From the NCBI GenBank assembly GCA_028717685.1, contig JAQUNI010000001.1, forward strand, positions 633,329-697,328: a stretch of DNA of 64,000 nucleotides. The letters are read 5' to 3'. A program made the position numbers and the translations under genes. The notes beneath the pieces are model-generated. The model was not told the origin of the DNA, made no database searches, and saw nothing but the letters and a program-made list of their open reading frames with translations. Of the stretch, positions 18,051 through 35,626 are shown in pieces; position 1 is the first letter of the stretch, and every line of letters begins with the position of its first letter. This DNA is from Patescibacteria group bacterium. Lineage in GTDB: Bacteria; Patescibacteriota; JAQUNI01.

Positions 18051-19391
18051 GTGCCTCGTCGTAAAAAAACAACAGTGAGGCGCAAATCGCGCCGCAAGAA
18101 ATCTTACAAGCGGAGTCCGCAGCCCAAAAAAATGGGAATAAAGAAGAGGAAAAAAAATAAGCCTAAAACTAAAAGAACGGCTTGGCAGAGAGCTCGCCCC
18201 GCAAGGAAGAGAAAACCTCTTTATTTTTCGCGCGCGAAAAAAAGCGCCGCTAGGCGCAAAAAGACCCGTCGTCCAGTCAGGCGGACGAGGCGGAAAAGCG
18301 CGGTTTCGCAAACGAAATTAGATTATCTTTTTCATAAAGGCAAAGAGCAGGGTTTTATCACGGTGAACGAGATTTTAGCAGCAATTCCTGAGATTGAAGA
18401 TTACGAAGAAGCTCTAGACGATTTTTTATCTAAATTAGAAGAAGAGGGAGTGAGTATAGAAGAAACCAAAGGGGATTTAATTGAGAAGGCAGAAGAGAGC
18501 GGGGAGGAAGAAGGGGAGAAGTCTCCGAAAGAAATAGGATTTTGGGAGGGTCTGGATCTTGGCGATATCTCTTCAGATTCGGTTCAGATGTATTTGCGGG
18601 AGATCGGCAAAGTACCCCTTCTGACTTCTCAAGAAGAGGTTGATTTATCCAAGCGCAAAGAAAAAGATGACCAGGAAGCGAAGAATAAGCTTATTGAAGC
18701 TAATTTGCGCCTCGTTGTTTCTATAGCTAAAAAATACACCGGACGTTCTCTTTCTCTTTTAGATTTAATTCAAGAAGGCAACATTGGTCTTTTCCGGGCG
18801 GTAGAAAAATTTGATTACCGCAGGGGCTATAAATTTTCCACTTATGCCACTTGGTGGGTTCGTCAGGCAATCACGCGGGCGCTCGCCGACCAATCGCGCA
18901 CGATTCGGATTCCCGTGCATATGGTGGAAACGATTAATAAATTCACCCAGACGGAAAGACGTTTAGTGCAGGATTTGGGACGAGAGCCGATGCCTGAGGA
19001 AATCGCGGCGGAAATGGGCATTCCCTTGGAAAAAGTGCGGCAGATTTTAAAGGTGTCGCAGGAAACTGTTTCTTTGGAAACGACCGTGGGTGAAGATGAC
19101 GAAGATTCAACCCTTGGCGATTTTATTGAAGATGAAAAGACGCCTACCCCGGACCGCTTGGCGGGTCAGGAACTCTTAAGAAACCATATTAAGGACGTAA
19201 TTCGGGATTTAAACCCCAGGGAGCAGAGGATTTTAAATATGCGTTTTGGTTTAAGCGATGGCATCTCTCATACCTTGGAAGAGGTGGGGCAGGAGTTCGG
19301 CGTCACCCGTGAGCGGATCCGCCAAATTGAAGCGAAAGCTTTGGAAAAGATTCGGGATCATACGTTGATTAAGAAGTTGAAGGATTATTAG
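18051..19391 (+). CDS. rpoD: RNA polymerase sigma-70 factor RpoD with K/R-rich N-terminal extension
   Basis: Region 1.2 ([11 protein letters not shown]), region 2 ([16 protein letters not shown]...LIQEGNIGL...[13 protein letters not shown]), region 3 and region 4 ([12 protein letters not shown]). GTG start. Confidence 0.9.
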
Positions 19392-19397
19392 AGTAGC

Positions 19398-19428
19398 AAT
19401 CGGTAATCAGTAACTGGTAATCGGTAAT
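19398..19428. repeat. Left arm of inverted repeat flanking the four-helix-bundle gene
   Basis: AATCGGTAATCAGTAACTGGTAATCGGTAAT. Its reverse complement recurs at 19817-19850 (GTAATCAGTAA...TCGGTAAT shared). Confidence 0.6.
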
Positions 19429-19809
19429 ATGAATATTATAGATAAAAAGATCGTCAAATTTTATGATCTGGAGGCTTGGCAGAAGGCTTATGAATTGGTC
19501 TTGGAAATTTATAAGATTACAAAGTTATTTCCCAAGGAAGAATTGTTTGGGATGACAAGCCAATTAAGAAGAGCGGCGGCTTCAATAGTAGCTAATATCG
19601 CAGAAGGTTTTGCGAGATACCATTATAAAGATAAGGTAAAGTTTTATTACCAAGCACGCGGTTCGGTTGCCGAGGTTCAAACCTTTTTGTTATTAGCCAA
19701 AGATTTAAAATATATTGATTTAAAAATTTGTAAATATTTAGGGGAAAAGTGCAATGAGGTAGGAAAGCTGATTAATGGTTTGATTCGTTCCATTGAGAAA
19801 CAAAAATAG
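19429..19809 (+). CDS. Four-helix-bundle protein (23S rRNA intervening-sequence protein family)
   Basis: The sequence features EAWQKAYELVLEIYKITKLFPKEELFGMTSQLRRAAASIVANIAEGFAR...ARGSVAEVQTFLLLAKDL are diagnostic of the PF05635 family. Confidence 0.75.
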   Translation: MNIIDKKIVKFYDLEAWQKAYELVLEIYKITKLFPKEELFGMTSQLRRAAASIVANIAEGFARYHYKDKVKFYYQARGSVAEVQTFLLLAKDLKYIDLKICKYLGEKCNEVGKLINGLIRSIEKQK

Positions 19810-19816
19810 TTTATGA

Positions 19817-19850
19817 ATTACTAATTACTAATTACCGATTACTGATTACG
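19817..19850. repeat. Right arm of inverted repeat flanking the four-helix-bundle gene
   Basis: ATTACTAATTACTAATTACCGATTACTGATTACG is the imperfect reverse complement of 19398-19428. Confidence 0.6.
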
Positions 19851-19857
19851 AATATAT

Positions 19858-19931
19858 TCCGCGATAGCTCAATGGTAGAGCAACTGGCTGTTAACCAGTG
19901 GGTTGCAGGTTCGAGTCCTGCTCGCGGAGCC
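19858..19931 (+). tRNA. tRNA-Asn (anticodon GTT)
   Basis: Manual fold: acceptor TCCGCGA/TCGCGGA; D-arm GCTC-AATGGTA-GAGC; anticodon stem ACTGG/CCAGT with loop CTGTTAA; T-arm GCAGG-TTCGAGT-CCTGC; discriminator G. Confidence 0.85.
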
Positions 19932-20173: not shown

Positions 20174-20373
20174 AAATAAACAACCATTGGCGGCGCGCTA
20201 ACGAAGTTGGCACAAAAAATTGCGGCGGCGGAAAAAGAAGCGGCGAAAGCTTGGGCGATCTAAAAGTTTTTCAAAATTCAGCGTTCGGCCCCGAAGGAAA
20301 GCCTTCGGCTTCCGACGGGATAAAATTTTCGCTAAAAAAAGTTCGGATTTCGTTCAGCGTTTGGAGCTCATAT

Positions 20374-20406
20374 AAAAAAATGGCTTATTTAAGCCATTTT
20401 TTGGTT
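20374..20406. promoter_or_regulatory. Family-A palindrome copy 1 (AAAAAAATGGCTTATTTAAGCCATTTTTTGGTT) upstream of TTGATA -35-like boxes
   Basis: Perfect A/T-flanked palindrome. TTGATA hexamers follow at 20424 and 20455. Confidence 0.6.
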
Positions 20407-20537
20407 AAAATTAGTAAAAATGATTGATAAAGTGTTGCTAAATATTACGTCTCTTTGATAAATTAGTAAAAAGTTATAAAATACATAGATCTTAATAATT
20501 TAAAGATAACTAAAAAGAAAGTATAAGAAGAAAGGAA

Positions 20538-25100: not shown

Positions 25101-26066
25101 ATGAAAAAGATTTTAATAATTGGATTGATTGCAGGTATTTTAGTAATTGGAATTATTGCCTTTTTCTTATTACATTTTTCTTCAGAAGAGGAGAATAATG
25201 TGGGCCAAGAATCAGAAATTTTTTGCGCAGATTACGATGGAAATCAACAAGAATGTTTATCCTATTCAGAATGCAAGTGGAGTTCAGATATAAATGAATG
25301 TGATTCAACAGATATGGTTGATGAAAATTATGAAGGATTGAACCAAGAATTAGAAAATATTGCTGTTCCAAATAATCCCTCAAATACTCTTTGCAAAAAA
25401 ATACCTTTGTCAGGTAAACCTCCTTATGGTGAAAGATATTACTGTTTGGCAGTTGTAAATCATGATGAAAGATTTTGTGAAGGGATTGATGAAGAAAAGG
25501 GGAAAAATATTTGCCTAGCCCATGCAAAAGCAGACCCCTCTTATTGTAAAAAAATCCAAGAAGATTCAGCTAAACATGTTTGTTATTATATGCTTGCGGT
25601 ATCAAGCAAAAATGCTGATTTTTGTAGTGATATTAGTTATAGCCAACATGAAAAAGAACAATGCTATTTTAATTTTATGAGTAATTTATATCAGTGGGAT
25701 AAATCTGATGAGATAAAAACAGAATACTGTAATCAACTTGGTACTCCAGATAAAAATACTTGTCTTGCGTTAAAGGCGAGAGATATTTCTCTTTGCGGAG
25801 ATAATCCTCATTGTTTGACTTTTTTTGGGCAAGATTTGTCTTTTTGTGATGAACATCCTGAAATAGATGGTTGCATAAAAGATAGGGCAAAGACAAGTAA
25901 AAATGTGTCAATTTGTGAATTACTTCCCCAGCCAGATAGAGATAGCTGTGTCGGGGTTTATTGCACCCACACAGAGCTTGATGTTAATATTTGTGATAGG
26001 ATTGAGGGTATTAAAGAAAGGCAAGACAGGTATATAGAACTTGCAATGAATTTAGGTAATTGGTAA
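25101..26066 (+). CDS. Membrane-anchored cysteine-rich protein, hypothetical
   Basis: N-terminal TM helix. More than 30 Cys in a repeating C..C pattern. Confidence 0.5.
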   Translation: MKKILIIGLIAGILVIGIIAFFLLHFSSEEENNVGQESEIFCADYDGNQQECLSYSECKWSSDINECDSTDMVDENYEGLNQELENIAVPNNPSNTLCKKIPLSGKPPYGERYYCLAVVNHDERFCEGIDEEKGKNICLAHAKADPSYCKKIQEDSAKHVCYYMLAVSSKNADFCSDISYSQHEKEQCYFNFMSNLYQWDKSDEIKTEYCNQLGTPDKNTCLALKARDISLCGDNPHCLTFFGQDLSFCDEHPEIDGCIKDRAKTSKNVSICELLPQPDRDSCVGVYCTHTELDVNICDRIEGIKERQDRYIELAMNLGNW

Positions 26067-26159
26067 AAATTTAATGCCGCAAAATCCTAAAAGTTTATTT
26101 TGTTTTTTTTATTCATTCTGATTCAAAATTAAAATCCAGTAATTTTTTCCTAGGGGAAA

Positions 26160-26197
26160 TTGGGGTCAGATCTTGTATCTTGACCTCTTTTTATTTT
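26160..26197 (+). terminator. Family-B conserved terminator copy 1
   Basis: TTGGGGTCAGATCTTGTATCTTGACCTCTTTTTATTTT. Confidence 0.6.
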
Positions 26198-26238
26198 AAA
26201 GCGGTTCATAACTTGGTCCGCCTTGGAGGAATTTATAT

Positions 26239-26269
26239 AAAAATGGCTTATTACAGCCATTTTTTGGTT
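26239..26269. promoter_or_regulatory. Family-A palindrome copy 2 upstream of TTGACA/TATCAT promoter
   Basis: AAAAATGGCTTATTACAGCCATTTTTTGGTT, then TTGACA at 26277 and TATCAT 17 nt later. Confidence 0.6.
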
Positions 26270-26619
26270 AAATAATTTGACAAAATAATTCAACTGTTTT
26301 ATCATTATATTTTATAACTCATAATTTACTGAAAGAGGCGATTTTTTGAAACACGAACATTGTTTTTTGGAAGATAGACTTTTTCAGTAGAATAGAGAGT
26401 TTCAATCTCTATCCTAGTAATGATAATGATTTATAAGTTCTACTGTTCATTCACAATTGAATAAGGTTAGAAAATCTTGAAATTTCTGTGAGGAGGAAAT
26501 GATGAAATCAAAGAATTATAATAAGAGATGGTTGGAAAAGTAGAGGTTATTTTTTAGCTATCTTTAGTTACGCTTGATTAGTAGGATACAAGGGTGTGAA
26601 AATCAAGAAGGAGAAAAAA

Positions 26620-29600
26620 ATGGTAAAAGGTGATGTTGATAGAGTGAAGGGGTATATTGATAGTGGTCTGATTGATCCTGTCAAAATAGCTCAAGAAATT
26701 GAAGGGTTGCCAGCATTACAGGTGGCTTATATTATTGATACGTATGACTTGATGCCGTCTACAATTGAACGTGGTGAGCTATATGAATCTGATAGTTTTA
26801 TTGACTTAGCTATGAAAACCCCTGGAATTCTTGAGGATACTCGTTTTGAAATACTTGCGCGATTTCATGAAAATTATGCTGCTAAGCTTTTTGCAGAAGG
26901 GCTGAAACTTTATCTTGATAGTCAAGAGGGAACTATTTTCGAATTTAATAAAGATACTGAAATAGATCCTACCAAGCCAATATCTTTTGTGAGGATTACT
27001 TACCGTCCTAATAAAGGAATAGAGCTGAAATATCTAAATGGAAATGCGCCTAGTAAGGGGTTTTATACCGTTTATTTGGGGAATAATTACACGGTTGTGT
27101 TTGATAACTCGGTTTTTAATAATAGGAAGGCAGTTTTTGAAGAACTTAGCTCAATTTTTTTATCTCGCAAAATTACATTTGTGGACTGTTCTCAGGAAGA
27201 GTTAAATGTGGTACAGCAATTAGAATCCGCTTTCTTATTAGCTTCAGTTGGCAGGACTCCGGTCTCTTGTCGATTTAAAGAGTCTTTCTTAATTGAGTGG
27301 TTGTCTTGGCAGGGCAAGCGGCAATTAGCCCGTGAGGAGGTAAAGCTTTTAGCCCGCCTCCTAAGGGAGAAAAATTTGTCTATCATGACTCCGGCAAGAA
27401 TTAAGCTTTATAAAGCTTCAAAAGGGCAATATGATAGAAGGCTTTTGACGGATATATTCTTTAGGAAGGAGGAGCCCAAAAAAATGGTTTCTAATATAAA
27501 TTGCCTAATGAATTTTAATATGGATTTAGCAGGCATTAAAGGTCCTATTGAAAAAGCGCCATTTCATATTTTAGCTCAAGACGTACCGATTAAGGTTGCT
27601 CCATTAAAAGGGTCGATTTCTTGCGCTTCTTATCTCATGAAATTTTATCCAGGGTATGGGGTATTAGACCAAAGTAAATCCATAATGGTATTAGATGAAC
27701 TTTCGCGCGAGAAGCGCTCTCGTTTGTATCTTAGCTTCTTTTATGATCCCGAGAGTCCGCTTTACAAAGCGCATTCCGCTTTTAGTAATGAAGTTAGCAA
27801 ACAGCTCAGAGAAAGAGGATTAGATAATGCCCGAAAGCTAATCCAGGCTTATATTGTTCGAAATAAGATGAGGATTGAAGATATAAAAGCCGAGGATATA
27901 GCTTTTCTATTTTCAGGTGGTTCTACTTTTTCTTTGTGCGGGATAAAAATACCTCATAGGACGAGACTTATTATGAATAAGATCTTTCCTGACGAATACG
28001 GACGGCTTTCTTTAGAAAGCGGTGAGGAATTATTTTCGCTTGATAATGAAGGCTTAATAGGTATTCGCAAAAGAGCTTATTTTGACGATGGTGCTGATGA
28101 TGCCGATATTTATACATCGGATGAGTTAAAGAGAATCAAGGAACGTTTTCGAGAAAATAGCAAAATGGCAATTAAATGCTATCTTGCTTTGCATCCCGAA
28201 AAAAGCTTAGATCTATTAAGCCAAGGAGATTTGACCGCTATTTCAGCTAAAATGTTGAGAATTTTGGGCGGTAGTTCTGTAAGGGTTTGTTTGAATAGAT
28301 TGATGCCTGATCAGTTCTTAATCCTTGATGAGGAAAAATCCCTTCATTATCTCATGGCAAAAGATAGGGATAAATTTTCTTTAGCCAGAAGATACATTCC
28401 GGATTATTACCATATCGTAGAGGAGGAGCCAGATAATTCCCAAATTTTATATGATGAGCATGATATAGCAGTGATTCGTGAAAGAACTATTGAGAATCTG
28501 AGAACTCTTGTTAAAACTCTTTTAAAATTCAAAGGATTTAGGTTTGTAGAGGAATTGGGCAGGCATAATACTGAAGGGCTGATTGATTTGCGCATTTTAG
28601 GCAATGCTTTCCCTAGTAGAGTTGATGGCAGTAATAATTTTATTGCTTCCACGAGAAAACTTTTCTTTAATGATTACGGTGTTTTAACTGAAGAAAAGTA
28701 TAGATATTGGAAGCATCAGGCAACGGGTCCAAAGAAACGTTATTTAAGCAATGTTTTTTTTATGGATCCAGACCTTGAAGATGGCTGGACTAAAGAAGAA
28801 ATTGAGGTAATCAAGTCACAATCTAAGAAAAATGCTATATTAGCCCTTAAGCTTTATATGCAAGAAGAAGGTATATTAGATATTCATAATATAACCAAGG
28901 AGATGCTGATAAAAGGAGTTGGGAAGCAGCCATTACTTCGTATCCTTGGTGTTTCTAGCTTTAGGAGCATTTTGAATGAAATATTCCCGGATGATTTTGC
29001 TGTTTTAACCCAAAACGGAGTTAAAAATTATTTTTCTTCTTCAACTACCCAGAAGCAGGCTCTTAATTATTCCTACTTTGGGACAAATGCTGACGGAGGG
29101 CTTGAACGGTATGCTGAAATTTCTGGCTTGAATAAAAAGTGGGTTTCTAATGCTATTGTGATGTTTCTTGAATTTCTAAGGGTAAATAGACTGTCATGGA
29201 AAGTATTCGGAGATGATGGGAGTTTACATTCTGATATTACTTTTACTCTTCCGGACAGTGTTTTTAGGATATTCAAGACCGATAACCATCACTTCATGTG
29301 GATTAAGGAGCAAATCGCGCCATTCCTTCATCCCATTGAAGATACAGAAGCTTTCTATTGGATCAATCTTGCTGAAACTGTAAATTTAGTAAAATTTTGG
29401 CAGTTAGATGATCTAAAAAATACTAATAGAATTCAAGACGTTCCTCTGCAGTTAAGAGCTAGAATCGCCGCAAAGGTTTTTGAGCATGGATATCCTTTTA
29501 TTTCTAATCAAAGAAACATGCTCGCAGCTGATTCAAAGGCGCTATTGCTTGCTAACCTTGATTCAATATCGGATCAACTTGATGGGATTGAAAAAGTTTT

Positions 29601-30228
29601 ATCGTTAGCTTGTTCCGACAGGTATGCCAATGTTAAAAAAGCTAGTTGGCAATCAATTTACTTGCTTAATCGCCACAATCCAGCGAAAGCAGAGGAAAGC
29701 ATTGCAATCTTGATGCGTTCCCGCAATCTTTCTGATGCTGAGGTAAAAAATATTCCGTCTGAATTACTAAAGGTAGTGAGCATTACGGCTGGAAAAGTTA
29801 ACAGCGATTTAGTTGACTTGCTTAAAATTTTTGGGCAAGAGCTAGATCTTGATCAAAATTGGCATAGCGACCAAATCAAGCTTATCAAGGGTGCGATTGC
29901 TGCGATAGATCATTTGGCCAAGGGTGAAATAGATCAATTGTTAAGATTGGCAAAGTTGGTTATAGAAAAGAATTTTTTTCTTTTTTATAATAGGGTTTTT
30001 AGGATTTTGGCAAAAAATATCAAATTTTTAACCGTTGATCATTTTGGAAGTTTAGCGCCAATAATTCCGGATTTAGTCTTTGATTCCAATGATGTGACGA
30101 AACAAGTCGGAATGATGCTGGTTGAAAATTTGCGTTTAGCTTACCCTGTTTTAGGAGAAACGAATCAAGCTATGACAGGGAATGTTTTACAAGATGTTAA
30201 GAATAGGATAATCACTGGAAATTTTTAG
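26620..30228 (+). CDS. Large hypothetical protein (about 1200 aa) with internal repeats; no recognised catalytic motif
   Basis: ATG at 26620 preceded by AAGGAG, in frame with ORF 26596. At least four copies of an RILG-SS-R..LN.IFPD-F..L-like module. No Walker A motif found. Confidence 0.6.
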   Translation: MVKGDVDRVKGYIDSGLIDPVKIAQEIEGLPALQVAYIIDTYDLMPSTIERGELYESDSFIDLAMKTPGILEDTRFEILARFHENYAAKLFAEGLKLYLDSQEGTIFEFNKDTEIDPTKPISFVRITYRPNKGIELKYLNGNAPSKGFYTVYLGNNYTVVFDNSVFNNRKAVFEELSSIFLSRKITFVDCSQEELNVVQQLESAFLLASVGRTPVSCRFKESFLIEWLSWQGKRQLAREEVKLLARLLREKNLSIMTPARIKLYKASKGQYDRRLLTDIFFRKEEPKKMVSNINCLMNFNMDLAGIKGPIEKAPFHILAQDVPIKVAPLKGSISCASYLMKFYPGYGVLDQSKSIMVLDELSREKRSRLYLSFFYDPESPLYKAHSAFSNEVSKQLRERGLDNARKLIQAYIVRNKMRIEDIKAEDIAFLFSGGSTFSLCGIKIPHRTRLIMNKIFPDEYGRLSLESGEELFSLDNEGLIGIRKRAYFDDGADDADIYTSDELKRIKERFRENSKMAIKCYLALHPEKSLDLLSQGDLTAISAKMLRILGGSSVRVCLNRLMPDQFLILDEEKSLHYLMAKDRDKFSLARRYIPDYYHIVEEEPDNSQILYDEHDIAVIRERTIENLRTLVKTLLKFKGFRFVEELGRHNTEGLIDLRILGNAFPSRVDGSNNFIASTRKLFFNDYGVLTEEKYRYWKHQATGPKKRYLSNVFFMDPDLEDGWTKEEIEVIKSQSKKNAILALKLYMQEEGILDIHNITKEMLIKGVGKQPLLRILGVSSFRSILNEIFPDDFAVLTQNGVKNYFSSSTTQKQALNYSYFGTNADGGLERYAEISGLNKKWVSNAIVMFLEFLRVNRLSWKVFGDDGSLHSDITFTLPDSVFRIFKTDNHHFMWIKEQIAPFLHPIEDTEAFYWINLAETVNLVKFWQLDDLKNTNRIQDVPLQLRARIAAKVFEHGYPFISNQRNMLAADSKALLLANLDSISDQLDGIEKVLSLACSDRYANVKKASWQSIYLLNRHNPAKAEESIAILMRSRNLSDAEVKNIPSELLKVVSITAGKVNSDLVDLLKIFGQELDLDQNWHSDQIKLIKGAIAAIDHLAKGEIDQLLRLAKLVIEKNFFLFYNRVFRILAKNIKFLTVDHFGSLAPIIPDLVFDSNDVTKQVGMMLVENLRLAYPVLGETNQAMTGNVLQDVKNRIITGNF

Positions 30229-30254
30229 GTTTCCAGTGATTCAGGAGGTTTAAG

Positions 30255-31136
30255 ATGGGCAGCACAATAATGAGCGGTTCTTTGATGAAATTAATTGATG
30301 CAACACTGGAAGAGGCAGAAAGAAGAAATGCGCTTTTAAAGTTTCGGGGGGAACATGGATTGGGAATAAAGCTAGTAAAGAGGAAATATTTACTTGAAGC
30401 TTTAGAAAGCTTAAATGCAAATGCAATGTCGGTTGTTCTTAACGAACAGCTGTTAGAAATTATTAAGTCATTTTGGGCGTGCATTATAGATCCTTTAATG
30501 AGAACAGGGTCTATTCTAGGCCACCATTTGGACTTTTTGCGCAATGAAGTAAAGCTTACAGCTACGATCGGCATCAAGGCTATATGTTTTATTCAAGAAA
30601 AATATGAACCACCAGAAGTTTTAGTGGACTTATATTTCAATGAAAAAAACAAAGAAGGCGTAGAAGCTAAGATCAATAAGCTCGGCGAATTGGTTTTTAT
30701 TGACCCTGATATTAATAGGTTGTGGCCAATAAATATTCGCAGGGTTATCCAGGCTTCGGTCTTAGCTTATTATCTTGTATTAGTTTGTCCTGGAATATGC
30801 AAAGAGTCACCTAGCGGCGATGATGATGAAAAGGACAATGAAAAACGAGAGCAAAAAAAGAAACGGAAGGGAGTAATAAATTTCCGAAGGGCGCATTTAC
30901 GCACATTGCCAGAAGGTTATGTCGCCTCAGCACGCCAGTTGGCACTAGCTATCTCTTCTGGAAAATATAGCGAAGAAGAGATTGAACATATAGTGCAAGA
31001 GGGAAGGCACCAAACTTTTGTGAAGGAATTTTCAAAAGAGGATAGCGACCTTCCGAATATAGATCCTAGAAAGTTATTTAGTAAAATTTCCCCAATAAAA
31101 TTTCTAAATGCTTATTTAGATTTAACGGGAGGTTGA
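30255..31136 (+). CDS. Hypothetical protein (293 aa), co-operonic with the 1210-aa gene
   Basis: Starts 27 nt after the upstream stop with GGAGG upstream. K/E-rich linker. No recognised domain. Confidence 0.5.
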   Translation: MGSTIMSGSLMKLIDATLEEAERRNALLKFRGEHGLGIKLVKRKYLLEALESLNANAMSVVLNEQLLEIIKSFWACIIDPLMRTGSILGHHLDFLRNEVKLTATIGIKAICFIQEKYEPPEVLVDLYFNEKNKEGVEAKINKLGELVFIDPDINRLWPINIRRVIQASVLAYYLVLVCPGICKESPSGDDDEKDNEKREQKKKRKGVINFRRAHLRTLPEGYVASARQLALAISSGKYSEEEIEHIVQEGRHQTFVKEFSKEDSDLPNIDPRKLFSKISPIKFLNAYLDLTGG

Positions 31137-31419
31137 GTTTTCTGGGTTATTCTGAAAAAGAATAACCCTTTTTATTACTAAAATTTTAAAACAGACCGTG
31201 CTTTTTTTGTATTTATTTTTAATTGTTTAAATATATTTAGCTTCCACGAAAGAAAGATTTTTGAATTCTCCTGTAATTTTGTCCCAATCCGTCAAAATAG
31301 AGGAGGTTTAGAATAGTTTTTTTGTTTGCCGAAAGTAGGTTATAATAAAAAAGATATCCCCTTCAAGTTTGCTGCGGCTGGGTAATTTGTTAGTATATTG
31401 GAGACAAAAATCAAGGTGT

Positions 31420-32775: not shown

Positions 32776-33576
32776 TTAGTTCGGGTAAACAACTATAATG
32801 GCTTTGCGGCCAGTGGGGATATCTTTCTCTAATTCTAAATTGTTTAATTCGCCGCCGCCAAAAGGCGCGTCGTGAACAGCGTTATATAGAACATTAGCGT
32901 TGTAAACATAATTGTAGCCTCTTCTTGTGCCGACATCATTGGTAATAAAGTTGCCATCTTTAGTTATACCTTTAACCACGATCATATGATAAATCGGTCC
33001 GGGTTGGCGATAAAACGGATTGTTGACCATGCGGCCAGCTAAGGGCACGATGACTGGACGGCCGGCAATTATTTGCGTTTTAATATCTTCCAGAGAAATA
33101 TCATAATCGACATCTACCCGTTTATAACCAAAATATTCTTTTAGTATTTGTCCGGTTTCTTTGGCGGTGGTATGTTCGTAATAGCCAAAGGTTTTATTTT
33201 CCCAATCTACTATTTTAAGAATTTCTTGTTTGGCAATTGCCGGAGTAAGCTTTTCGTGTTTGTAAAAGCGGTCAACTAAAAGAGCCGAGGTTTCTTCGCA
33301 GGCTTCTCCATATGGCAAACTCCAATCTTTATATGGCGCTTGGGCGGAAAAGGGCACAGCTAAGTTTATGCCGGCAAATTTAGTGGAGGTGGCGGCAATG
33401 GGCGACGTTGAAACATTTTCAACCTCTGTTGGCAATTGGCGTTTCTCCAATTCCAGAATAAGGTCTCGAATATTGCTGCGAAAATAAAAAGCCGAAATCC
33501 CGACAACTATCAATGCCCCCGCGGTTATTAATATTTTTTTCATACTATTTATTATACAATATTTATATAATATCAA
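32776..33576 (-). CDS. Membrane-anchored peptidase C39-like domain protein
   Basis: N-terminal TM helix. C39-like (PF13529-type) pattern with Cys (EACEETSALLV) and His (PIYHMIVVKG) segments. Confidence 0.55.
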   Translation of the reverse strand: MILYKYCIINSMKKILITAGALIVVGISAFYFRSNIRDLILELEKRQLPTEVENVSTSPIAATSTKFAGINLAVPFSAQAPYKDWSLPYGEACEETSALLVDRFYKHEKLTPAIAKQEILKIVDWENKTFGYYEHTTAKETGQILKEYFGYKRVDVDYDISLEDIKTQIIAGRPVIVPLAGRMVNNPFYRQPGPIYHMIVVKGITKDGNFITNDVGTRRGYNYVYNANVLYNAVHDAPFGGGELNNLELEKDIPTGRKAIIVVYPN

Positions 33577-33641: not shown

Positions 33642-34169
33642 ATGCGTAGCCCCAATAACCTTATTATGAACAAGCATTTAAAAGTTAAATCTTTCCAGGA
33701 AACTTTAAACGCTGGCATGTGCGGGCCGGCTAGTTTAAAGATATTATTTAGTTATTATGGGATAAATAAGACAGAAAAAGAATTAGCCAAGATGATTGGA
33801 TGGGATAAAGATCTAGGGGTAGATGATAAAGGAATCAAACAGGTGGCAGAAACACTGGGTTTTAAGGTAAAAATAAAGAATAATAGCAGCTTCGGAGATA
33901 TTGAGAACTGGCTAAATAAAGGCGTGCCAGTTATTGTGGACTGGTTCACGCGAGGCAGATCTGACTATCCTGATTCGGAAACAGCCGATGGACATTATTC
34001 GGTTGTAGCCGGTTTGGATAATAAATTTATTTATCTTCAGGATCCGGAGATTGGAAAAATAAGAAAAATAAAAAGGTATGATTTTATGAGAGTATGGTTT
34101 GATTTTAAAGGGGACTATATTCAGAAAAATAAATTGATAATTAGACAGTTAATAGTAATTTATCGCTAA
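33642..34169 (+). CDS. Peptidase C39-like domain protein
   Basis: NAGMCGPASLKILFSYYG...DGHYSVVAGLD are classic C39-like Cys and His motifs. Confidence 0.7.
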   Translation: MRSPNNLIMNKHLKVKSFQETLNAGMCGPASLKILFSYYGINKTEKELAKMIGWDKDLGVDDKGIKQVAETLGFKVKIKNNSSFGDIENWLNKGVPVIVDWFTRGRSDYPDSETADGHYSVVAGLDNKFIYLQDPEIGKIRKIKRYDFMRVWFDFKGDYIQKNKLIIRQLIVIYR

Positions 34170-34882: not shown

Positions 34883-35626
34883 ATGAAGAGAATTTATCTT
34901 TTATTTTTTTTAGTTATTATAATTGCCGTCATTGTTTTATTAGTTTATATTTTTTTTCAAAAGCCAAAATCATCCTTGCCGCAAAACAATCTCCCCACGG
35001 TTTCAACCAGCGAGCCAAGGCAGAAAAATAATTCGCCATCAGTTTCAAACACAGAGCCAGCGCCGCAACAAACCCAACCCAAAAATGCAAATGTCGGAGA
35101 TACTGGCAAAGGAAGTGCAAGTATTTTTCAACCTCCTTTGGATAGAGCAGGGGAAAGGGTACTTAAGAAAAAGTTTGGTATGTATATCACTCCTCAAAAT
35201 TCGCCAGTGCAGCCGGAAAGATTTCAAGGATATCACACGGGAGTTGACTTTGAAATTTTTCCCGAGGAGTTAAACGCAGAGGTCCAAGTCCACGCGGTTT
35301 GTTCAGGAGAACTCAAGCTGAAAAAATACGCGTCTGGTTATGGAGGAGTCGCAGTTCAGGCTTGCGAATTAGATAAAGATCCGATAACTGTGGTCTATGG
35401 ACACTTGAAATTGTCTGGTATCGCTGCTGATGTTGAAACAAATATTAATGTTGGCGAAATAATTGGGATTCTAGGAGCTAATAGAAGCGTGGAGACAGAT
35501 GGTGAACGCAAACATTTACATTTAGGTTTTCATAAAGGAACAGCGATAGATATTCGAGGTTATGTGAGTTCGGAGGCAGAACTCGCTAACTGGATTGATC
35601 CCTGCCTTTATGTTTGTCATAATTAG
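34883..35626 (+). CDS. Peptidase M23 (LytM-type) family protein
   Basis: HTGVDFEI...GYGGVAVQ...VVYGHLKL...HLHLGFH are M23 metallopeptidase motifs. N-terminal TM helix. Confidence 0.8.
   Translation: MKRIYLLFFLVIIIAVIVLLVYIFFQKPKSSLPQNNLPTVSTSEPRQKNNSPSVSNTEPAPQQTQPKNANVGDTGKGSASIFQPPLDRAGERVLKKKFGMYITPQNSPVQPERFQGYHTGVDFEIFPEELNAEVQVHAVCSGELKLKKYASGYGGVAVQACELDKDPITVVYGHLKLSGIAADVETNINVGEIIGILGANRSVETDGERKHLHLGFHKGTAIDIRGYVSSEAELANWIDPCLYVCHN

Follow-up and report, generated by a model that had tools for sequence, protein, structure and literature searches.

We analysed a two-gene locus, here called A-B, in a 64-kb stretch of a Patescibacteria group bacterium metagenome-assembled genome (MAG); the whole of this stretch is referred to below as the window. 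A large gene, A, is followed on the same strand by a small gene, B, with a gap of 26 nt between the stop codon of the former and the start codon of the latter (Table 1). The two proteins, MDD5626997.1 and MDD5626998.1, and their homologues from Sungbacteria all carry the NCBI label "hypothetical protein." The results identify A-B as a real two-gene unit, strictly linked and under selection, that occurs in only a few Patescibacteria lineages. Beyond a weak HEAT/ARM signal, no relatives of its domains were detected.

Word-indexed searches with A, and subsequently with the A-family alignment, returned the query only. An exhaustive HMMER scan of 1.84 billion representative proteins found six relatives (seven proteins with the query), of which three are full-length (38%, 26%, and 26% identical), one is an 872-aa form without the first ~345 residues, and two are fragments. 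The profile of B retrieved ten proteins of ~293 aa among 5.8 billion clusters. A pattern-based scan of 185,579 species genomes, which divergent members can escape, detected the pair in one of them, a groundwater MAG of Candidatus Sungiibacteriota (Sungbacteria); two metagenome contigs of the Joint Genome Institute (JGI) also carry it. All the A and B relatives found are unannotated. No relatives of B were present in IMG/VR, the INPHARED phages, or the PLSDB plasmids, and no PHROG matched, giving no sign of phage or plasmid cargo.

The co-occurrence of the two genes, which a preliminary description of the locus had proposed to check, was complete. Ten other loci had enough sequence (L002, L003, L004, L005, L008, L009, L010, L011/L012, L013, and L014), and in each of them a B homologue directly follows the A homologue in the same orientation, the two genes overlapping by 4 nt at one extreme and standing 55 nt apart at the other, so that the pair is kept as a unit throughout. 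An all-against-all comparison of the flanking open reading frames (ORFs) gave no third gene common to the loci, apart from DnaG and an RpoD-like sigma factor.

The two proteins diverge together from locus to locus: the identities of A and B to the window proteins were 70% and 78% for L014, 54% and 72% for L010, 37% and 46% for L002, and 25% and 34% for L003. The Nei-Gojobori ratios of nonsynonymous to synonymous substitution rates (dN/dS) ranged from 0.09 to 0.16 for B and from 0.17 to 0.22 for A, indicating purifying selection on both genes, which are therefore considered functional and protein-coding. When L005 and L009 were compared with each other, B was 87% identical and A only 53% (dN 0.07 vs. 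0.36), which may point to faster or diversifying evolution of A in that lineage.

A-B has the predicted layout of a self-contained operon, with its own promoter, two translationally close genes, and its own terminator. The preliminary description had put forward an uncharacterized, tightly coupled two-gene operon, and the promoter-like site, the terminator-like hairpin, and the linkage in ten other loci bear it out. For gene A, the ATG at 26620 is preferred over the GTG at 26596, which opens a longer ORF and was chosen by NCBI, because AAGGAG is located at 26608-26613, 6 nt upstream of the ATG, and because the N-termini of the homologues fit this start. The ORF of the previously reported 1203-aa product is real, with a length of 1,202 aa. 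The TTGACA/TATCAT site described earlier is present as well; sites as good as this one number three on the plus strand of the 64 kb, compared with 1.2 ± 1.1 per strand in shuffled sequences.

A leader of roughly 310 nt with several hairpins had been reported, and the ~308-nt region between the putative transcription start and gene A agrees with this. Its minimum free energy is -71.8 kcal/mol compared with -56.4 kcal/mol for shuffled sequences (z = -3.8), and the quoted hairpin ATAGAGA-gtttcaa-TCTCTAT is found at about 26393-26413. The proposed Rfam scan of the leader yielded no family match: a permissive scan of 26050-26700 gave a best E-value of 0.38, far under the gathering scores, and a scan of the whole window at the gathering thresholds returned two tRNAs only, without any known riboswitch, leader, or T-box. 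In the other loci, the region upstream of A measures just 70-190 nt, each with its own TTGACA-like site. Consequently, the long structured leader appears to be specific to this genome and is not a feature of the family, so the weight previously given to it has to be corrected. A 14-codon upstream ORF inside the leader could encode a regulatory leader peptide or could be due to chance. At the A/B junction, an antisense ORF of 121 aa (30212-30577, minus strand) has a 57%-identical counterpart in L010; as it overlaps the coding strand, it is most readily understood as a shadow of the conserved genes there and not as a gene.

Table 1. Features of the A-B locus in the 64-kb window (aa numbers refer to protein A unless gene B is named)
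Feature	Position	Strand	Remarks
Terminator-like hairpin of the upstream gene	26240-26268	+	AAAATGGCT-tattac-AGCCATTTT; within the 84-nt repeat element 26189-26272
Sigma-70-type promoter-like site	26277-26305	+	TTGACA-17-TATCAT; 11/12 consensus positions; consensus match only
Putative 5' leader	26312-26619	+	~308 nt; transcription start inferred from the promoter
14-codon upstream ORF	26499-26543	+	MMKSKNYNKRWLEK (stop after); inside the leader; GAGGAGG site at 26490-26496
Gene A	26620-30228	+	1,202 aa; annotated by NCBI as MDD5626997.1 with GTG 26596 as the start
N-terminal domain of A, aa 1-286	26620-27477	+	no known family; missing in the L005 and L009 short forms
Degenerate module R0, aa 287-375	27478-27744	+	hhalign vs. 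module profile: probability 95.8%, E = 8e-9
Module R1, aa 388-489	27781-28086	+	hidden Markov model (HMM) independent E-value (i-E) = 7.5e-27
Module R2, about aa 498-594	28111-28401	+	HMM i-E = 4.5e-30; 55% identical to R2 of L002
Module R3, about aa 611-715	28450-28764	+	HMM i-E = 5.2e-25
Module R4, aa 723-821	28786-29082	+	HMM i-E = 1.9e-28
C-terminal region of A, aa 822-1202	29083-30225	+	HEAT/ARM-like; DRYxxV(R/K)xxAW motif near aa 1000
Shine-Dalgarno site of gene B	30243-30248	+	AGGAGG; equivalent GGAGG before B in other loci
Gene B	30255-31136	+	293 aa; NCBI MDD5626998.1
Intrinsic-terminator-like hairpin	31144-31168	+	10-bp stem then T-run, 8 nt past the B stop

The central part of A consists of tandem repeats. 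The iterated HMM detected exactly four units of ~100 aa in the window protein and in every homologue, each with an E-value of 1e-22 to 1e-34, and the degenerate R0 precedes them as a fifth copy. The internal repeats of the preliminary description are thus real and significantly related, with the correction that the 30-aa module given there is the best-conserved core of a longer unit. The peptide cores quoted earlier correspond to aa 448-468, 545-573, 655-693, and 772-800; in Smith-Waterman comparisons against shuffles, those of R2 and R4 were related with z = 15 and the other pairs with z values of 3-6. The consensus of 28 modules reads Y-T-x-x-E-x-x-x-I-x-x-R-x-x-x-N-A-R-x-x-I-x-x-Y-L...L-E-x-L...L-L-x-x-L-F-P-D-x-Y-G-V-L-T-x-E-K...L-S-x-V-Y-F. 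The modules are positionally orthologous, R2 being nearest to the R2 of other proteins and likewise for the remaining modules; therefore, the array is ancient and fixed and not a variable repeat. None of the other ORFs in the window carries the module.

A likeness of the LxxILGxS segment to helix-hairpin-helix units had been suggested for the module, and this analogy was not upheld. No helix-hairpin-helix or helix-turn-helix model matched A, the 28 single modules, or the module consensus at E ≤ 1, the module profile had no match in PDB, and the LxxILGxS segment, variable in sequence and length, proved to be the least conserved and most indel-prone stretch of the unit across the family. The nucleic-acid binding proposed along with it is a guess, for which only the net charge of the modules speaks, positive in 26 of 28 (isoelectric point, pI, 8.8-10.1). 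The N- and C-terminal regions of A are mostly near neutral or acidic, and basic in two short forms.

These short forms, encoded at L005 1163-3781 (872 aa) and L009 157-2790 (877 aa), start within R0 and have no N-terminal domain, so this domain is evidently dispensable for the core unit. At the other end of A, the family consensus of the C-terminal region matched Pfam HEAT with 23.9 bits (cut-off 23.5; E = 4.2e-5) and also touched HEAT_2, Cnd1, and CLASP_N. The natural A sequences remained below the threshold (E = 0.061 for P0002, and no match for the A protein of the window), and their sub-threshold HEAT/TIP120 matches fall on the DRYxxVR motif. Against PDB, the C-terminal profile retrieved HEAT/ARM proteins only, namely Integrator subunit 4, designed armadillo, and CAND1, at E-values of 0.005-0.06. 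This weak and coherent signal suggests that the region forms a HEAT/ARM-like alpha-solenoid.

Apart from the HEAT signal, Pfam, NCBIfam, PADLOC, and PHROGs gave nothing above noise for A, B, their homologues, the modules, or the consensuses, and no relatives of the whole proteins, the modules, B, or the N-terminal domain of A were found in PDB by sequence or profile. A match of A to a known housekeeping family, which would have refuted the preliminary description, was likewise not obtained in Pfam, NCBIfam, PADLOC, PHROGs, or PDB. The earlier reading that A has no Walker or other catalytic motif was confirmed by a motif scan of A that detected neither Walker A nor any other simple catalytic motif; a signal peptide and transmembrane segments were likewise missing. 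The Walker A pattern GxxxxGK[ST] was found in neither A nor B, and neither had a Pfam or NCBIfam ATPase match, so no P-loop NTPase, helicase, or SMC-type large subunit was recognized.

Protein B comprises an acidic alpha/beta N-terminal domain (aa 1-180), a charged linker (aa 181-210), and a small C-terminal domain (aa 211-293). The N-terminal domain has a pI of 5-6.4 in nine of ten proteins, and the C-terminal domain is mildly basic. The K/E-rich linker noted previously is present as SGDDDEKDNEKREQKKKRKG, running from acidic to basic (KKKRK in the window protein), and is predicted to be disordered, with the small basic C-terminal domain following it. In B, the motif scan likewise detected neither a signal peptide nor a transmembrane segment, and no Walker motif. 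A hydropathy peak at aa 164-182 on the Kyte-Doolittle scale was considered as a transmembrane helix and dismissed, as the homologues are polar there and the structural model buries the segment as a core helix.

AlphaFold2 with the single sequence of B was unusable, with a predicted local distance difference test (pLDDT) score of 37. The model built on the alignment of ten sequences had a mean pLDDT of 63.8 and a predicted template modelling (pTM) score of 0.64. Its moderately confident part (aa 8-180, pLDDT 70-89) opens with a long helix and closes with another, with two further helices and a sheet of five strands between them. The invariant polar residues of B are E22, T84, D93, N97, Q114, E115, D125, E137, and D150, and in the predicted model D93, E115, D125, E137, and D150 map to consecutive strands or to their ends. 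Comparison of the fold with the PDB and BFVD structures revealed no significant structural relative of the N-terminal domain; the top Foldseek matches were Vps75/NAP1 histone chaperones with an E-value of about 1 and a probability of 0.10. A PD-(D/E)XK nuclease was rejected for B after the conservation and structure comparison, in which the D...(D/E)xK pattern with the core fold was not found.

The neighbors of the pair differ from locus to locus. In the window, genes for a CBM96/FN3 surface protein and a Cys-rich protein lie upstream and murJ downstream, while a VanY-type peptidase gene is found upstream in L002, a serine recombinase gene followed by rpoD and dnaG is next to the pair in L003, an HNH-repeat gene, parB, and a sigma factor gene flank it in L005 and L009, and metK and csoR flank it in L010. 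In L011 (3625-4926), IS1595-family and DDE_Tnp_1_3 transposase genes are located directly downstream of B; its close relative L003 (A 88% identical) has the serine recombinase gene and rpoD at that position. An rpoD-like gene is situated 2-9 kb from the pair, in differing orientations, in the window (18051-19391), L003 (6757-7953), L005 (6237-7607), and L009 (9340-11052). RpoD of the window is 60% identical, and DnaG 35% identical, to that of the Sungbacteria MAG. The guanine-plus-cytosine (GC) content of the pair is 0.369 versus 0.408 for the remaining window, whereas in most of the other loci the pair does not differ from its flanks in this respect. The search for a defence island with PADLOC gave only chance-level matches in ten neighboring genes.

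Several further elements were observed around the pair in the window. An 84-nt direct repeat occurs at 20326-20409 and 26189-26272 (70% identical overall), and its 33-nt core, consisting of the terminator hairpin and TTGGTTAAA, is present exactly twice in the window versus zero expected. A 5.8-kb block of four genes (HD-like, unknown, CBM96/FN3, and Cys-rich) is enclosed by the two copies; it lies ~0.5 kb downstream of tRNA-Asn and directly upstream of the A-B promoter. The repeats may represent a shared terminator/promoter cassette or island boundaries. Just before tRNA-Asn (19858-19931) lies a gene for a 23S-rRNA-intervening-sequence/bAvd-like four-helix protein (19429-19809), with 27-nt inverted repeats on either side (19395-19421 and 19817-19843); neither a reverse transcriptase nor a template/variable repeat was seen near it. 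This gene prompted the idea that A or B is the target of a diversity-generating retroelement, which was discarded because no template/variable-type DNA repeat involves either gene. Downstream of murJ, two divergent C39-like cysteine peptidase genes (32776-33576, minus strand; 33642-34169, plus strand) are followed by an M23 peptidase gene (34883-35626), forming a cell-envelope/peptide-processing cluster that is unconnected to A-B in the other loci.

We tentatively favor an accessory, conflict, or defence-type module of a few Patescibacteria as the single most likely reading of A-B, with much of the probability lying with functions other than those considered here. This reading is adopted because the pair is rare, patchy, and fast-diverging, has mobile-element neighbors in two loci, and coincides with a dip in GC content in the window. 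The accessory block in which the preliminary description had placed the pair is plausible. Both proteins would be cytoplasmic and would act together as a complex, as suggested by the gene order, the coupling, and the co-divergence. In this complex, A would serve as a large modular scaffold or sensor, apparently without enzymatic activity, in which five basic helical modules of ~100 aa are followed by an alpha-solenoid; the repeats, the solenoid, and the lack of catalytic motifs point to a binding role. The basic module array and the solenoid would bind a polyanionic or extended ligand, either nucleic acid or the acidic domain or charged linker of B, and B would supply the activity or output via its conserved acidic cluster, so that these carboxylates presumably form its functional site. 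The narrower proposal of an undescribed intracellular conflict/defence or nucleic-acid surveillance system confined to Patescibacteria, in which two new domains would take part, the basic module arrayed five times on a HEAT-type scaffold as the sensor and the acidic alpha/beta fold of B with its five-carboxylate cluster as the effector, appears unlikely as a whole.

Several observations weigh against the accessory or defence-type module. No effector-type domain (nuclease, protease, NADase, kinase, etc.) was recognized in A or B, no convincing PADLOC match was obtained for the pair or its neighbors, and the pair is missing in the virus and plasmid collections. The A-B complex is suggested by the gene arrangement, and the C-terminal third of B (pLDDT < 50), with aa 182-274 in all, is unreliable in the model. 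The basic charge of the modules may in part be an effect of the Lys-rich proteomes of AT-rich genomes, and the patchy distribution may in part be a sampling or sensitivity artefact of the pattern-based scan. Furthermore, the distance of 2-9 kb to an rpoD-like gene in four loci and the GC content equal to the flanks in most loci fit a lineage-specific chromosomal function with vertical inheritance.

Such a function, in the form of a housekeeping or chromosome/transcription-associated complex of the lineage that is inherited vertically near the dnaG-rpoD-parB region, is in our view rather unlikely. In this scenario, the scaffold would be A, a HEAT-type protein with a loose likeness to the HEAT subunits of condensin or Integrator, and B would be its acidic partner, either histone-chaperone-like or nucleoid-associated. 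Besides the proximity to rpoD, with parB adjoining in L005 and L009, and the GC content near that of the flanks, the strong purifying selection and the inclusion of Cnd1, CLASP_N, and Integrator subunit 4 among the HEAT-type matches agree with it, as does the rank of Vps75/NAP1 at the top for B, though that similarity is not significant. A core pair would nevertheless be expected in the intervening lineages, yet it was detected in a single species genome even though the RpoD proteins of the window and L003 are only 60% identical, and the distance and orientation of rpoD vary among the loci, with mobile-element genes in between. A host-interaction factor of an episymbiotic lifestyle, in which A, as a large repeat protein, is delivered to the host cell or acts on it and B serves as its chaperone or co-effector, is less probable still. 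The secreted or surface-type neighbors in the window (CBM96/FN3, Cys-rich, C39-like and M23 peptidases, and MurJ) would suit it, eukaryote-style HEAT repeats and a KKKRK resembling a nuclear localization signal are typical of some effectors, and lineage-specific families of unknown function are numerous in the Candidate Phyla Radiation (CPR) (PMC6744442). However, both proteins lack signal peptides and transmembrane segments, the surface-protein neighborhood is not kept in the other loci, and no secretion-system gene is linked. Finally, the missing annotation, the lack of known domains, and the AT-rich region could be taken to mean spurious or decaying ORFs with repeats that are a compositional artefact. 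The conservation and selection data refute this and leave it a negligible probability, given the full-length homologues at 25%-78% identity with conserved length and order, the dN/dS of 0.09-0.22, the strong Shine-Dalgarno sites, and the positionally orthologous repeats, whose HMM E-values are 1e-22 to 1e-34.

The novelty of A-B consists in the fact that no known kind can be assigned with the available tools, and is not that of a demonstrated new mechanism. The CPR is the least-characterized part of the bacterial tree, with about half of the genes lacking an assignable function. Since orphan families are common in the CPR, finding another is in itself no surprise. Should A-B prove to have a defined activity, it would provide two new domains, the 100-aa repeat module and the alpha/beta domain of B, and possibly a new two-component system from the least-characterized bacterial branch. 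With two genes in 4.5 kb, A-B is a compact and well-delimited target for structural and functional work.

Among known systems, the last ~380 aa of A resemble HEAT/ARM scaffolds (PF02985; Integrator subunit 4, CAND1/TIP120, Cnd1, and designed armadillo) through the HEAT match of the family consensus and carry a D-R-Y-x-x-V-(R/K)-x-x-A-W motif; this region probably works as a helical repeat binding surface. Compared with these scaffolds, the signal in A is weak and covers one or two repeats only, and the other 820 residues have no counterpart. The N-terminal domain of B resembles its top, non-significant structural neighbors, the NAP1/Vps75 fold and the small acidic inhibitor or immunity proteins Ugi, CdiI, and Cpi1, in having a long helix, an antiparallel sheet, and an acidic character. 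Two-gene anti-phage systems composed of a large repeat or solenoid sensor and a small effector (PADLOC-DB) are similar to A-B by analogy only: A-B likewise has its own promoter and terminator, combines a large fast-evolving with a small conserved protein, is patchily distributed, and in some loci has mobile-element genes nearby. In contrast to them, it has no recognizable effector domain, lies outside a defence island, and is not found in phages or plasmids, and none of the 5,027 PADLOC-DB v2 models matched A, B, four homologues of each, or the B consensus. The protein families of unknown function that are enriched in the CPR (Meheust et al., 2019; PMC6744442) are comparable in being lineage-restricted and unannotated in Patescibacteria. 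A-B is far rarer than the families that are typical of the CPR as a whole, and it is resolved here as two genes in a constant arrangement whose domain architecture is defined.

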